Assembly (NCBI GenBank): GCA_963719945.1
Contig: CAVRDX010000001.1
Span: forward strand, 288,001-352,000
Reading direction: 5' to 3'
Origin: an uncultured Thermoplasmata archaeon
Lineage (GTDB): Archaea > Thermoplasmatota > Thermoplasmata > UBA10834
Length of the DNA stretch: 64,000 nt
Every line of letters begins with the position of its first letter. The first letter of the stretch is position 1. The notes below the pieces were generated by a model. The model was not told the DNA's origin, made no database searches, and saw only the letters and a program-made list of their open reading frames with translations. Below are positions 14,476 through 19,679 of the stretch, in pieces. Both the position numbers and the translations under genes were made by a program.

Positions 14476-14807
14476 CTTTCTTCGTCCTCCTTTTCGGAGG
14501 TCGCTATATGATTGGGCTATTGAAGTACTTGCCGCCGATAGCTTCCTCAATGTAGAACCTTAATCGAACAGTTCTCTGTTCCGCTGACATCGTACAGGTC
14601 GCAATCTCGATGTCGGATCTCTCAGTATGGATTGATGTGATGGTCGGCAGTCAGCGCGCAATCGTCCGTGACTATCTCATCTGACAGGAAGCCGGTTTGT
14701 TTCGGGAATGAAAACTTAAGGGTGCCAGCGGTTTACCAAAGGCTTAAGAGGGGTATAGGTTATTTACCTAAACAGACAGTTTATGAATCACTCTCGGAGG
14801 GTATTTG

Positions 14808-15350
14808 ATGAATGATGATGACCTCATGAAAGTCAAGATCTGCTTCATTGGAGACGCAGGCGTAGGTAAGACTAGCCTCATCAAGAGATTTGTTCTCGAC
14901 GTCTTCGACGACAGGTATATCGCAACCATCGGGACCAAGGTTACGAAGAAAATTGTTGAGGTCAGTGACCAGGGGACCAATGTCAAGGTCATGATGCTCA
15001 TTTGGGATATTATGGGTCAGAAAGGGTTCCGCGAACTCCTGCGCGAAGCATACTTTTTCGGAGCGCACGGGGCAATCGCAGTATGTGACCTGACGAACAA
15101 GGAGACTCTCGAAGAACTCAGGTATTGGATAAAGGCTCTGACCGATGTCGCGGGTGATGTGCCAATAGTGTTCGCGGGAAACAAGGCAGATCTCGAGAAT
15201 GAGAGGGTAATCAAGGACGAGGAACTCCAGGAATTGGCCTCGAAATACAAGGCCAAATCGTTCATGACCAGTGCGAAGACTGGCCAGGGAGTCGAGGATG
15301 TCTTCAAGGCCCTCGGTCTCGCAGTCTCAGAGAAGATGGGCTCACGGTAG
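14808..15350 (+). CDS. Rab-like small GTPase
   Basis: G1 GDAGVGKTS, G2 YIATIG, G3 WDIMGQ, G4 GNKAD, G5 TSAKTG; FRELLREAYFFGA resembles RabF4; SD ggagg; no C-terminal Cys. Confidence 0.95.
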   Translation: MNDDDLMKVKICFIGDAGVGKTSLIKRFVLDVFDDRYIATIGTKVTKKIVEVSDQGTNVKVMMLIWDIMGQKGFRELLREAYFFGAHGAIAVCDLTNKETLEELRYWIKALTDVAGDVPIVFAGNKADLENERVIKDEELQELASKYKAKSFMTSAKTGQGVEDVFKALGLAVSEKMGSR

Positions 15351-15452
15351 TAGCCAGTGGTCCATTACCAACCCTGATAACGAATTAATAATCCTTATAT
15401 GCCCAGCATCGGCTATGAAATCCTCCAGAGAGTCAAGGGGCGGCTTAAGTTC

Positions 15453-18400
15453 ATGAAGGAAGTTCCCGTAGGAGGTTGCAGTCGTCATGCTCGAATTCTG
15501 AGCGGCTCACTTGCAGTCCTTCTCGCAATATTGATGATATCGGGGCCGGTCCTTCTGATGATAGGGGATGACCCCGTCAACGCCTCTGCGGATTCCCTGA
15601 CTTCCTGGGACCATTTGCTGCGCATGCATGAGGGAAGCCCTGTCTCCTCAGGAGATTATGATTGGCTGAACTCTTCCGCCCCTCAGAATCCAAGCGACCT
15701 CGATTACGATTCTGATGGATTGCTCGGAATCACGATCAAGAAGAACCTCCCATCTCAGCGTTGGAGGCATTTCTGGGTGCTCTCCCCTCCGGTGAACTCC
15801 GACGTTAGCATCCAAGGCGACATCTCGGCTCACATCTGGGCGGCCTCCAGGGACAACGAATCGGGGTCGATGATGACCATAACGTTGTCCGACATGGCTC
15901 CGTCCACCTTCTATAGCCCAAGCTCGTGGGCGAGTGTGGGAAGTGCCACGATTGCGCTGACGGGTCCTGTATACTCGTCATGGAAGGCATATGATCTGAA
16001 CATCCCCGGGATAGATTATGTGCTGGCAGATGGCCACTCTCTCGTCTTGACCATCATGAGAGGGGATTCGATCAATGACGGCTTGATGATCCTCTATGAT
16101 AGCAATGCATTCGATTCATACCTGATTGTCCCAACCAGGGACTTCATAAGCGTCGACGATGTCTGGACGGAAGATGAATCTGGAACATCCAGGACCGTGT
16201 TCGCCGACACTGAGGAGATTGTGGTATATGCGAACGTGTCGAACCCGTTCGGAGCATATGATATCCGCGAGTCCTATCTGGAAGTTGCATATTCCAACAA
16301 TGGGACAGTGTGCATCCCGTCGACTCCTCTGACCCTGGTTTCGGCGGACTCGTCCTCAAATCCGTCCTGGAAGCTGTTCTCTACTGCTCTCGAGCATTTG
16401 TGCAACGGAACCTTCAATCTGACGGTCTATGGCTATGATGCATTGGGCACTCCGACCTGGTTGACATCGTCCGTATCGATAGTCACCGCAGATCATTTCG
16501 AAGTCTTAACTCCATCCAATATCATCGCTGGCCAGGAATTCGAGATGACTATCACCGCATTGGACGCGGCTGGAGAGATCGTCCCGAATTGGAGAGGCAC
16601 TGTCGAGGTCGAGTCGGTCTTTTCAGAGACGATGACCCCCTCTTCTGGATCGCTGAATGTCACAACGGTAGAATTCGAGGGAACGGAGAACGGTGTCGTC
16701 ACGGTCGAGAACCAATCATACGACGCGGGCGAAGAGACGATAATCCTTATCGCGTATTCGAACTCGCATTTCGGCTACAGCGTCGAGATCTATGTGTGGA
16801 GCGGTCCCGTCAGTACGATATCCATTGACCCTGCGGGACCTATAACCTCGCTTCTATCCGGATCCATCGTATCTTTCACTGTGGTCGGACTGGATCATCT
16901 GGGGAACGAGAATACCTCCTGGTCGCCAGCATGGTCGGTGTTTGGCAGTGTCGGGACGATATCCGGTTCAGGAATGACGGTCTCCTTCATCGCATTGAAT
17001 GATGGTGTTGGTGGCATAAACTGCACTGATCCTGCGAGCGGCATATATGTGAACGTGAATATCACGGTCGTCGCCGGAAGTCTAGCCAGGATTGTATTGT
17101 CGCCGAGCGGCCCACTATCTATTCCCGAAGGGGTGAGCCAAGTTATTGTCGCGACGGGTTACGATTCATATGACAACATCGTAAGCATGTCCAGCGCTAC
17201 TTGGAGCACTAACACTTCTGGCAAGATCGTCGGTAGCGGTTCCACAGTCACCTACACTGCAGGGTACATCCCCGAATCAGGGGCGATTGAGGTCATGTAT
17301 GGTTCTGTAAGCGCATCGATCAGTGTTACTGTCATTAATGCACTCAATGGTCCACGACTCAGCACCATACCGACGCAGATCGCTACGGAAGATAGTTCAT
17401 GGAGCTTGAGTCTCACTTCATATTGGCATCACACCAATGGCACAGCGAACCTGAAGTGGTTTGCTGAGAATGTCGACACTTCACTCTACTTGGTCACGCA
17501 TGATCCATCTTCAGAGGCGATTGTAAAGTTCTATACGCAACCTGACAAGTTCGGCTCAGACACATTCAGACTCTGGGTAAGGGATCCCGACGGGTTCTCA
17601 ACCTATCAAGATATAGTTGTGAGTATCCAGCCAGTTAATGACAGGCCACATTTCGTCCACAGCCCACCGACCGAGATATATGTCAAGTTCTCAACTCCAT
17701 ATTCCTTCGACTACAGCTACTACGTGTCCGATGTTGACAACGCGAAGAGCAATCTGCTGATGTTCGCCGAATCTTCGAACTACGGCGATATCCTTTTCGA
17801 CCACCTGATATCAACATTCCTCTTCCTGGAGAAGGATGGGACCAACAGCTACTTCGAGATCATCACAATCACTCTGACTGATGCTGTCAATGCAGAATCA
17901 TCAGATTCTACAAATTCCGATTATCTGAATGCCGTGATATGGGTGACGGATGATACGCCACCGTCCCTGAACAACACGTTGCCGGATCAGGAGTTGAACG
18001 AGGGTGACCTAAATGTCTATGCGTTCGACCTGGACGACTTCTTCTTCGACCAGGATCCCGAAGACTATCTCGTCTATCAGTATGGTTTCGACAATATAGT
18101 GATATCCATCGATCAGGAGACCCACGAAGTCTACATGTCCGCACCGTTTGAATGGTCTGGAATCACTGAGGGCACCCTCACGGCCATGGACCCGACAGGC
18201 GCTTTCAAGACAGACATAGTCACGGTGACGGTCTTCGCTGTGAACGATCCTCCGTCGATCTCTCCGATCAATGATATTCATGTGCGCTATGATGTGGTAA
18301 CCAAGATCGATGCGAGCATGTATGTAGCCGATCCAGATCATACTCTGGATGAGTTGGTATTCTCATTTGACAGTCCATATGCAAGCTATTCTGATGGAAT

Positions 18401-19679
18401 GATTGAACTGCTCTTCCCTGCGAACCTCAGCGGTGGAGCGTTCACGAGCCCCTATATCGTCAAAGTCGGCATGACCGTCGCTGACCCTGAGGACGCGTCT
18501 GCAATACTTAGCTTCAGTGTGGTAGTGAGTGACAACTACGCTCCCGCAGTCACATACCCGATTCCATATCCAACACTTATCTCGTTCCCGGAGGATACCT
18601 ATCTCAATGGCTCGCTGAACTTGAGTCTGCTATTCAACGATGTTGATGACTCTAGCTTGTCCTACAGGATAGTCTATGGGAGCGCGTCTCCGAACATACA
18701 TGCGGTGATATATCCCGATGGTGTGGTCAACTTCACAGCCGCAGTCAACTGGTCTGGCATCGAAACTCTTGGGTTCGTGGCAACGGATTCTCACGGTGCC
18801 TGGGCTTCATGGATGGTCACGATCTCGGTGACGCCAGTGAATGATGCACCAATCATCTTGCCGATCAAAGATTTCGTGTTCAAGGGTTGGCCGAGGAACT
18901 CTCATTACATCATTTCCCAGTTCTTCATCGACAGCGAGACTCCGTATAGCTCGCTGGTGATATCAGCAATCCCTGATCAGTATGTGAGCGTAGTCGGCAG
19001 TTACCTCTATGTCAGCCTGCCAGATGGTGTGGATGTCATCACCGTCACTCTTCAGGCGACAGATGGTGACGGCGCGACGTCCAATACGATCAGCTTCAGG
19101 GTCGGCGTGACAAAGACTATGGCTGAGACGATTGGATGGCCGTACACTTTCCCCTTGGTGTTGCTTGCTGCAGGAATCGCGAGCTATTTCGCTGCCATGA
19201 GGATGCCTAGGCCCTACTCCCTTGAGAACCTCTTCCTCATCCACAACGACGGCAGGCTTGTTGCCCATGTCACTGAGGAAGAGAACACGAACATGGACAA
19301 TGACGTGGTGAGCGCCATGTTCACTGCCGTCCAGGAATTCGTGCGTGATTCTTTCCAGCAAGGGGAGGTCGGATTGAAGAAGCTCGAGATTGGCGACAAG
19401 AGCGTCATCATCGAGAAGGGTAAGTCTGTCTACATCGCCATGATCTATTCGGGATGGCCTCGAAAAGAGGTTTTCACATCTCTCGCGATGCTGCTCCGAG
19501 ACATCGAGGAAAGATATGCTGATAGGATTATTCGCTGGAACGGGACTATGAAGTCGCTCAAGGGCGTGCAGGAGATGCTCCAGATATACATGTCAAATGA
19601 GTTCAAGCCCGGTTCCTGGCAGGTCGAGGAAGAGATCGGAGAAGAGGAATGGGTCGACATCCTCGACAAGGAATCCTGA
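15453..19679 (+). CDS. Large single-pass surface protein with Ig/cadherin-like repeats and cytoplasmic longin-like domain
   Basis: N-terminal hydrophobic signal; repeat-end motifs PVNDRP, TDDTPP, AVNDPP, DNYAP, PVNDAP; TM WPYTFPLVLLAAGIASYFAAM at about 19137-19200; tail LFLIHNDGRLVAH...SAMFTAVQEFVRDSF. Confidence 0.85.
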   Translation: MKEVPVGGCSRHARILSGSLAVLLAILMISGPVLLMIGDDPVNASADSLTSWDHLLRMHEGSPVSSGDYDWLNSSAPQNPSDLDYDSDGLLGITIKKNLPSQRWRHFWVLSPPVNSDVSIQGDISAHIWAASRDNESGSMMTITLSDMAPSTFYSPSSWASVGSATIALTGPVYSSWKAYDLNIPGIDYVLADGHSLVLTIMRGDSINDGLMILYDSNAFDSYLIVPTRDFISVDDVWTEDESGTSRTVFADTEEIVVYANVSNPFGAYDIRESYLEVAYSNNGTVCIPSTPLTLVSADSSSNPSWKLFSTALEHLCNGTFNLTVYGYDALGTPTWLTSSVSIVTADHFEVLTPSNIIAGQEFEMTITALDAAGEIVPNWRGTVEVESVFSETMTPSSGSLNVTTVEFEGTENGVVTVENQSYDAGEETIILIAYSNSHFGYSVEIYVWSGPVSTISIDPAGPITSLLSGSIVSFTVVGLDHLGNENTSWSPAWSVFGSVGTISGSGMTVSFIALNDGVGGINCTDPASGIYVNVNITVVAGSLARIVLSPSGPLSIPEGVSQVIVATGYDSYDNIVSMSSATWSTNTSGKIVGSGSTVTYTAGYIPESGAIEVMYGSVSASISVTVINALNGPRLSTIPTQIATEDSSWSLSLTSYWHHTNGTANLKWFAENVDTSLYLVTHDPSSEAIVKFYTQPDKFGSDTFRLWVRDPDGFSTYQDIVVSIQPVNDRPHFVHSPPTEIYVKFSTPYSFDYSYYVSDVDNAKSNLLMFAESSNYGDILFDHLISTFLFLEKDGTNSYFEIITITLTDAVNAESSDSTNSDYLNAVIWVTDDTPPSLNNTLPDQELNEGDLNVYAFDLDDFFFDQDPEDYLVYQYGFDNIVISIDQETHEVYMSAPFEWSGITEGTLTAMDPTGAFKTDIVTVTVFAVNDPPSISPINDIHVRYDVVTKIDASMYVADPDHTLDELVFSFDSPYASYSDGMIELLFPANLSGGAFTSPYIVKVGMTVADPEDASAILSFSVVVSDNYAPAVTYPIPYPTLISFPEDTYLNGSLNLSLLFNDVDDSSLSYRIVYGSASPNIHAVIYPDGVVNFTAAVNWSGIETLGFVATDSHGAWASWMVTISVTPVNDAPIILPIKDFVFKGWPRNSHYIISQFFIDSETPYSSLVISAIPDQYVSVVGSYLYVSLPDGVDVITVTLQATDGDGATSNTISFRVGVTKTMAETIGWPYTFPLVLLAAGIASYFAAMRMPRPYSLENLFLIHNDGRLVAHVTEEENTNMDNDVVSAMFTAVQEFVRDSFQQGEVGLKKLEIGDKSVIIEKGKSVYIAMIYSGWPRKEVFTSLAMLLRDIEERYADRIIRWNGTMKSLKGVQEMLQIYMSNEFKPGSWQVEEEIGEEEWVDILDKES

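Follow-up and report, generated by a model that had tools for sequence, protein, structure and literature searches.

A Rab-like GTPase Gene Paired with a Surface Protein Bearing a Predicted Longin-Fold Tail in Thermoplasmata Archaea

The gene pair and its products

The stretch of DNA considered in this report (the window) comprises 64,000 nucleotides, positions 288,001 to 352,000 of the forward strand of contig CAVRDX010000001.1 (GenBank assembly GCA_963719945.1), from a metagenome-assembled genome (MAG) of an uncultured Thermoplasmata archaeon, indeed a non-Asgard host, as proposed by a preliminary description made from the sequence alone. Two neighboring genes of its plus strand are at issue, one coding for a Rab-like small GTPase of 180 amino acids (14808..15350) and the other for a single-pass surface protein (the receptor) of 1408 amino acids (15453..19679), the cytoplasmic tail of which is predicted to adopt a longin fold. 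Of the three refuting conditions named in the preliminary description, those on the fold of the tail and on conserved adjacency were put to the test, and neither outcome goes against it: the fold is predicted to be longin, and the pairing is kept from the genus to other families of Thermoplasmata and recurs in bacteria.

The GTPase gene starts at the ATG at 14808, an alternative TTG at 14805 being unused in orthologs, and codes for a single domain of about 170 residues bearing the G1–G5 motifs of small GTPases in the Ras superfamily (Pfam Ras, E = 3e-38; NCBIfam small_GTP, E = 2.7e-19). The complete set of G boxes reported at the outset is unchanged across 19 relatives (G1 GDAGVGKTS, switch-I T40, G3 WDIMGQ, G4 NKAD, and G5 SAK), and K21, T22, T40, D67, G70, N125, K126, D128, S155, and A156 are invariant among them, as is the catalytic Gln of WDIMGQ. 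Judged from PDB matches and database names, the closest sequence relatives of this protein are Rabs: the best 60 matches among solved structures are all Rab, Ypt, or Sec4 proteins, the top ones eukaryotic (Ypt6, Rab1, Rab8, Sec4; E about 1e-29), and near-identical database proteins from Thermoplasmata MAGs bear the names “Rab family GTPase” or “small GTP-binding protein.” The protein ends in ...EKMGSR and contains no Cys beyond residue 93; it thus lacks the prenylatable C-terminal Cys that, along with a hypervariable tail, distinguishes the Rab family proper, and the initial remark that no prenylation Cys is present holds.

The cytoplasmic domain of the receptor (residues 1272-1400, 19212..19598, plus strand; numbering throughout follows the longest open reading frame (ORF), which begins at 15399 and spans 1426 codons) belongs to a large family without a name. 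Residues 1262-1426 gave no match in Pfam or NCBIfam, and an exhaustive HMMER search with the tail collected 3,674 cluster representatives at E<=1e-3, of which 1,352 reach E<=1e-10; the named members are all labeled “hypothetical protein.” The matches lie mostly at the C terminus of very large proteins; some proteins carry two or three copies, and some are small membrane proteins. The domain has a core of about 125 residues, in which Asp33, Trp113, and Gly115 (numbered after the first sequence of the alignment) do not vary, and an invariant Arg, sought in the same family alignment as an arginine finger, was not found. Conserved positions on its surface include a His following beta-2, an Asp preceding alpha-1, a Gln within alpha-1, and a Trp-x-Gly motif that separates alpha-2 from alpha-3.

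A model of the tail was built with AlphaFold2 on a 44-sequence alignment (predicted local distance difference test, pLDDT, 87.4; predicted template modeling score, pTM, 0.82). Its element order is beta-beta-alpha-beta-beta-beta-alpha-alpha, with strands (E) and helices (H) assigned by DSSP at E7-15, E20-25, H34-51, E59-64, E67-73, E77-84, H89-111, H117-120, and H123-133, so that the order read from the letters in the preliminary description is reproduced by the predicted secondary structure. This predicted arrangement is that of longin domains, without an N-terminal helix. When the model was searched against 48,161 representative chains of the PDB, the top 30 rows were all longins (Z 10-14.5, 116-135 of 138 residues aligned). 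The best match was Sec22b (3egd_C; Z 14.5, root-mean-square deviation (rmsd) 2.3 over 123 residues), followed by VAMP7, TRAPP subunits, AP sigma, Ykt6, sedlin, a Lokiarchaeota Roadblock-Longin protein (8yqg_B, Z 11.8), CPLANE, Mon1-Ccz1 (Z 10.9), SRX, and DENN proteins; Foldseek concurs (Sec22b, TM 0.75/0.81). Roadblock structures rank lower (Z <=9.4, about 100 residues). A roadblock fold was rejected on account of its topology, since the tail has no N-terminal helix such as opens the roadblock order (alpha-beta-beta-alpha-beta-beta-beta), and of these lower Z values; the transmembrane helix ends about 6 residues before the first strand, and Roadblock/LC7 (PF03259) gave no Pfam match. Thus, of the two folds originally put forward for the tail, the longin is retained by the modeling and the roadblock is not.

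At the sequence level, the tail gave no match at E<=10 to the Pfam families Longin, Fuz_longin_1, and Intu_longin_1, let alone at their gathering thresholds. Among the 44 relatives, Fuz_longin_1 was seen in 3 (best E 0.017), Intu_longin_1 in 1, and Robl_LC7 in 5, all below the Pfam threshold, and the tail alignment, used as a profile against the sequences of the PDB, retrieved chance-level matches only (E>=0.1). As a prediction, the longin fold of the tail is well supported and of high confidence. A shape search of ESM Atlas clusters also finds this predicted fold (TM 0.79-0.86) in unnamed archaeal clusters, one of them from Promethearchaeota, in a Thermoplasmatota fusion with a response-regulator receiver domain, and in OmpA/BON (Cyanobacteriota), OmpA (Pseudomonadota), and SH3_3 (Chloroflexota) proteins.

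Several observations concern the family at large. The domain is fused to a STAND-type protein with AAA_16 and TPR domains (P0150); together with the receiver-domain fusion, this suggests a general signaling adaptor. Two small stand-alone tail proteins (P0142 and P0133) are encoded at the ends of contigs or close to them; they are probably fragments and were not retained as evidence for soluble forms. The Joint Genome Institute (JGI) label “OOP family OmpA-OmpF porin” attached to both was likewise set aside: it carries no porin signal and was probably carried over from bacterial OmpA fusions. Right after the longin domain, many family members display a basic-Tyr-x-x-Gly-Asp-Trp motif, which may be a linear binding motif; in the window protein, FKPGSW stands at this place, followed by an acidic C-terminal extension with Trp residues, which extends with the stop codon from 19599 to 19679 (plus strand) and is delimited from sequence and alignment.

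The remainder of the receptor, all on the plus strand, is an all-beta ectodomain between two hydrophobic segments recognized by their hydrophobicity. The N-terminal segment (residues ~33-56, 15495..15566), preceded by basic residues, is a signal peptide or signal anchor, and the single C-terminal transmembrane helix (residues ~1246-1267, 19134..19199) is followed by RMPRP. A model of residues 57-470, based on a 24-sequence alignment (pLDDT 87.8), resolves three domains. The first (residues 67-247, 15597..16139) is a beta-sandwich of jelly-roll type that resembles the non-catalytic domain at the C terminus of PepX/CocE-type hydrolases, with 8yzn_A as best structural match (Z 17.8, rmsd 2.6 over 161 residues) and a weak match to Pfam PepX_C. 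The other two (residues 250-468, 16146..16802) are sandwiches resembling immunoglobulin (Ig) domains and carbohydrate-binding modules, with structural matches at Z about 10 and rmsd 2.1-2.4 over ~100 residues. The rest of the ectodomain (residues ~470-1240, 16806..19118) consists of additional repeats, Ig-like and tandem-95/cadherin-like, in which a V-N-D-x-P motif recurs (NCBIfam tandem-95/cadherin-like, 5e-17; Pfam Big_9, 3.5e-6). The models, family matches, and hydrophobicity are all in keeping with the protein first sketched, of about 1,400 residues with Ig/cadherin-like repeats, one transmembrane helix, and a tail; “Ig/cadherin-like surface protein” is a fair description, and the adhesion role drawn from these folds is a guess.

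Translation of the receptor probably starts at 15453 rather than 15399, because the ATG at 15399 is not conserved (AAG in most orthologs in an intergenic alignment of nine orthologous loci), the ATG equivalent to 15453 (M19) is kept in the closest orthologs, and the closest database relatives are also 1,408 amino acids long. The same-strand arrangement first described therefore stands, and the gap, initially given as about 100 bp, becomes 48-102 bp depending on the receptor start. Within it, TGATAAC (15375-15381) and the TATA-like CTTATA (15394-15399), both on the plus strand, are invariant in the nine loci; together they are probably a promoter of the B recognition element (BRE)/TATA type that belongs to the receptor gene itself; TGATAAC, 13 bp upstream of CTTATA, may also be a regulator site. 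The preliminary description had itself cautioned that a TATA-like cttatat near 15394 could reflect separate transcription, and the invariance of CTTATA makes separate transcription of the two genes likely. On either side lie unrelated housekeeping genes of the opposite strand (an Asn-synthase-like gene upstream and a DUF885 gene downstream), and the base composition of the window shows no anomaly.

Pairing of the two genes in archaea and bacteria

The genome to which the window belongs (1.78 Mb, 87% complete) contains three tail-domain genes and five Rab-like GTPase genes. They include a second pair, in which the gene for a tail-domain membrane protein of 217 aa precedes that for a GTPase paralog by about 30 bp. 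A 101-aa ORF without Pfam match overlaps the GTPase end of this second pair (L003:2467-2772, C1:136065-136370) and may be a third component or spurious. Elsewhere in the same genome (L040:4704-6145, C3:98704-100145), a 170-aa Rab-like GTPase paralog overlaps by 4 bp the start of a 310-aa V4R+DUF835 protein; DUF835 is also fused to the tail domain in P0057 and adjoins a tail fragment in L017, and DUF835 proteins may be a second partner class for these GTPases.

A tail-domain gene is present in 84 of 121 Thermoplasmata genomes and a GTPase gene in 88, and their family-by-family distributions nearly coincide, which is to be read as a pattern and not as a statistic since kin are non-independent. 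Both genes are missing from families f6 (0/12 genomes), f19 (0/9), and f20 (0/1), and in family f11 the tail is found in 0/11 genomes and the GTPase in 1/11. The orthologous pair, with the GTPase gene directly upstream of the gene for the ~1,400-aa receptor on one strand, is present in 12/12 genomes of the same family and order with listed coordinates. In family f8, taken as Ca. Sysuiplasmataceae, each genome has exactly one tail gene and one GTPase gene, and these are adjacent in 5/5. The f8 receptor is homologous to that of the window over its whole length (26% identity over 1,423 columns, E 1e-85); by this comparison, the receptor is an old, conserved protein and not a variable adhesin.

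Adjacency was also counted without regard to orthology. In five diverse genomes with complete lists, a same-strand GTPase gene lies in reach of 16/59 tail proteins, against an expectation of 1.45 (Poisson 4e-12), and 21/78 GTPases have a same-strand tail gene in reach. The GTPase alignment retrieved 80 loci, and a tail gene is present in 20 of them, on the same strand in 20/20 and directly adjacent in 17. Two gene orders exist, the GTPase preceding the receptor in one and following the tail protein in the other. Distances among GTPases and among tails correlate over 28 pairs (r 0.82), a value reached by 0/2,000 global and 15/2,000 within-genome shuffles.

Two other arrangements of these genes deserve mention. 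In another Thermoplasmata MAG, a 312-aa protein that combines Robl_LC7 (53-139) with the longin-like tail domain (169-296) is encoded directly upstream of three tandem GTPase genes (L062:6297-7232). Elsewhere in the class, four genomes of a single genus (G014:C9, G037:C7, G067:C39, and G026:C60) have four tandem GTPase genes at an equal distance, ~17-18 kb, from the gene for a ~1,930-aa protein with two tail domains; this arrangement is a conserved larger cluster.

The sole bacterial locus returned by the GTPase locus scan is that of “Ca. Amarolinea aalborgensis.” There, the archaeal tail hidden Markov model (HMM) matches a 477-aa protein at E 8e-30 (domain 153-281, SH3_3 388-439), the gene for which is followed immediately by that for a GTPase 42% identical to the window's and by a PAS-HisKA-HATPase histidine kinase gene. 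Its 5.7-Mb genome contains exactly one tail-domain gene and one GTPase gene. In a sample of Chloroflexota, the domain is found in 4/101 genomes, each with one copy and one GTPase gene on the same strand within about 1.5 kb.

A proposed membrane-tethered platform and its alternatives

We consider it rather probable that the two genes constitute a module in which a membrane-tethered longin platform docks and regulates its cognate lipid-free Rab-like GTPase, thereby coupling a surface protein to a switch. According to this proposal, a single-pass all-beta surface protein would present a longin-fold domain right at the membrane's inner face, this domain would serve as docking and regulatory platform for the lipid-free GTPase encoded beside it, and the state of the surface protein would thus be coupled, via the tail, to the nucleotide state or the location of the GTPase. 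What is observed or computed is the domain make-up of both proteins, the fold prediction, the conservation of the gene pair, the phyletic distribution that its members share, and their co-divergence; binding of the GTPase by the tail and any direction of signaling are inferred. As for the part played by the tail, which the preliminary description saw as that of an exchange factor for guanine nucleotides (GEF) or a GTPase-activating protein (GAP), we lean toward an anchor or a GEF-like platform: a catalytic Gln is already present in the GTPase, and an Arg common to all tails is absent from the family, so that an arginine-finger GAP is disfavored.

The modeling of a tail dimer with the GTPase, suggested at the outset, was carried out with two tails and one GTPase as input. 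The predicted complex scored 0.55 (best control, 0.21) and so passes the mark reached by 58/80 solved complexes and 2/110 mismatched pairs, which amounts to weak support; runs share at least 76% of contacts, and the pLDDT of the partner is at least 78. Among complexes that reach the mark, scores at 0.60 or under were obtained by only 7/80 solved complexes and by both passing mismatched pairs. Given the prior provided by gene context, the prediction raises the odds of binding a little.

Several considerations weigh against docking. The complex score falls in an error-prone band: short of a high prior, most passes there are wrong. Longin-GTPase complexes have solved structures, and the pass may partly be memory of these. 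The longin fold of the tail is itself a prediction, and all family members stay below the Pfam thresholds for longin and roadblock, so that homology to eukaryotic longins, as distinct from likeness of fold, is no more than plausible. Only about one quarter of tail proteins and of Rab-like GTPases adjoin each other, and the third tail protein of the window's own genome (with an FG-GAP, PKD, and Big_13 ectodomain) has no GTPase neighbor. Close kin partly drive the co-divergence signal. Finally, the conserved TATA-like box suggests separate transcripts; such transcription leaves the conserved gene pairing standing.

Among the other explanations, the one that fares best reverses the direction of the coupling: the GTPase would act upstream and, by binding the tail, set the placement, clustering, or activity of the surface protein (e.g., in polarity, adhesion sites, or envelope assembly). 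Myxococcus MglA-GTP, which engages the gliding adhesion machinery, offers an analogy. The end-to-end conservation of the receptor across families is not that of a variable sensor, the single pair per genome in Ca. Sysuiplasmataceae fits a housekeeping role in cell biology, and no output gene (kinase, cyclase, or transcription factor) stands beside the archaeal pair. The histidine kinase that follows the GTPase in the bacterial counterpart, however, fits outside-in signaling, and we hold this inside-out arrangement to be unlikely. Less likely again is that the predicted longin-fold tail is an oligomerization or sorting module that does not touch the GTPase, the pairing reflecting co-regulation or a shared pathway. 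The three quarters of tail proteins without an adjacent GTPase, the common dimerization of longin and roadblock folds, the modest outcome of the complex prediction, and the promoter-like box between the genes would fit such a module, but the near-identical phyletic patterns of the two genes, the one-to-one adjacent pairs in Sysuiplasmataceae and four Chloroflexota genomes, the shared strand in all 20 loci holding both genes, and the co-divergence of the partners argue for contact. A conflict or defense system, in which a surface sensor coupled to the GTPase detects invaders, is very improbable: family members are fused to a STAND-type AAA_16+TPR protein and stand beside DUF835 proteins, and candidate anti-selfish-element systems are said to include profilin-longin-like domains together with GTPases (bioRxiv 10.64898/2026.10.19.760177), but the surroundings are housekeeping genes with no effector gene nearby (no search with a library of defense-system models was made), the pair is vertically conserved across the class together with its ectodomain, and no composition anomaly was seen.

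If the tail does bind the GTPase as we favor, this would account for the arrival of such GTPases at the membrane, give a function to the unnamed domain of bacterial Rup neighborhoods, and provide a simple two-protein system, made of soluble, easily expressed parts, for the study of pre-eukaryotic receptor-GTPase coupling. The tail family itself amounts to thousands of unnamed proteins of non-Asgard archaea and bacteria, with a confidently predicted longin fold and a genomic tie to Rab-like GTPases devoid of a lipid anchor. The module bears on the origin of Rab regulation. We tentatively raise the possibility, itself on the doubtful side, that a longin-type GTPase platform on membrane receptors, one-to-one with Rab-like GTPases, is an old prokaryotic invention common to Thermoplasmata and several bacterial phyla, with look-alikes in Asgard archaea, and that the longin-Rab partnership seen in eukaryotic membrane traffic descends from this transmembrane signaling module and is not a roadblock derivative of the eukaryote or Asgard stage.

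Comparison with longin, roadblock, and Rup systems

Eukaryotic longin platforms for small GTPases include Mon1-Ccz1 for Rab7, TRAPP Bet5-Trs23 for Rab1, DENN for Rab35, the FLCN and NPRL2 GAPs, and SRX for SR-beta. The module proposed here would belong with these and with the known roadblock-GTPase modules. The tail resembles the eukaryotic and Asgard platforms in its predicted fold and in the order of its strands (Z 10-14.5, 120-135 residues aligned), and its candidate partner is also a Rab-like GTPase. Furthermore, the Robl_LC7-tail protein from another Thermoplasmata MAG recalls the Lokiarchaeota Roadblock-Longin protein 8yqg. The differences are of three kinds: the tail gives no significant Pfam longin match; it is tethered to a single-pass surface protein, whereas the eukaryotic platforms reside in soluble multi-subunit complexes; and its family has no invariant Arg finger.

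Longin domains are viewed as GTPase platforms of eukaryotes, and lately of Asgard archaea, and have been treated as eukaryotic derivatives of prokaryotic roadblock domains (Zhang et al., PMC3521125); for MglA-MglB and other operons joining roadblock/LC7 proteins to GTPases, that paper cites Koonin and Aravind (2000). The window pair resembles these operons in that a small domain from the profilin/longin-like superfamily adjoins, and presumably regulates, a prokaryotic GTPase of the Ras superfamily. On the other hand, the tail has the predicted longin order, with C-terminal helices and no N-terminal helix, and not the permuted roadblock order, and neither of the two true Robl_LC7 genes of the window's own genome adjoins a GTPase gene. 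In the literature searched (subscription journals not covered), no paper was found that gives these GTPases of Thermoplasmata or bacteria a partner of longin fold, and nothing relevant on a prokaryotic longin, or one from Thermoplasmata, came to light.

In bacteria, the Group 1 Rup GTPase is encoded with a membrane protein bearing an unnamed conserved domain, to which no fold was assigned, and with a kinase or a cyclic di-GMP enzyme (Wuichet and Sogaard-Andersen, 2014; PMC4316618). Compared with that description rather than with the locus tags of the paper, the window pair likewise places an MglB-less Ras/Rab-like GTPase beside a membrane protein with a conserved unnamed domain, and by HMM this domain has a homolog in a Chloroflexota protein whose gene stands in such a neighborhood; the fold search also places the predicted tail fold in bacterial OmpA/BON and SH3_3 proteins. 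In contrast, the archaeal longin domain is C-terminal behind a giant ectodomain and not N-terminal. The adjacent output gene of Group 1 (histidine kinase or GGDEF/EAL) and its coiled-coil gene have no equivalent in the window, where neither a kinase nor a cyclase gene accompanies the pair and none for a coiled-coil protein was noticed, the kinase being found in the bacterial locus only.

Also close to the GTPase of the window are the Rab-like GTPases devoid of Cys described in a Thermoplasmatales archaeon and in Aciduliprofundum, for which membrane localization “via protein-protein interactions” was suggested (Surkont and Pereira-Leal, 2016; PMC4915359). The window GTPase fits this description, and whereas no partner was proposed in that work, the receptor tail now provides a membrane-anchored candidate.

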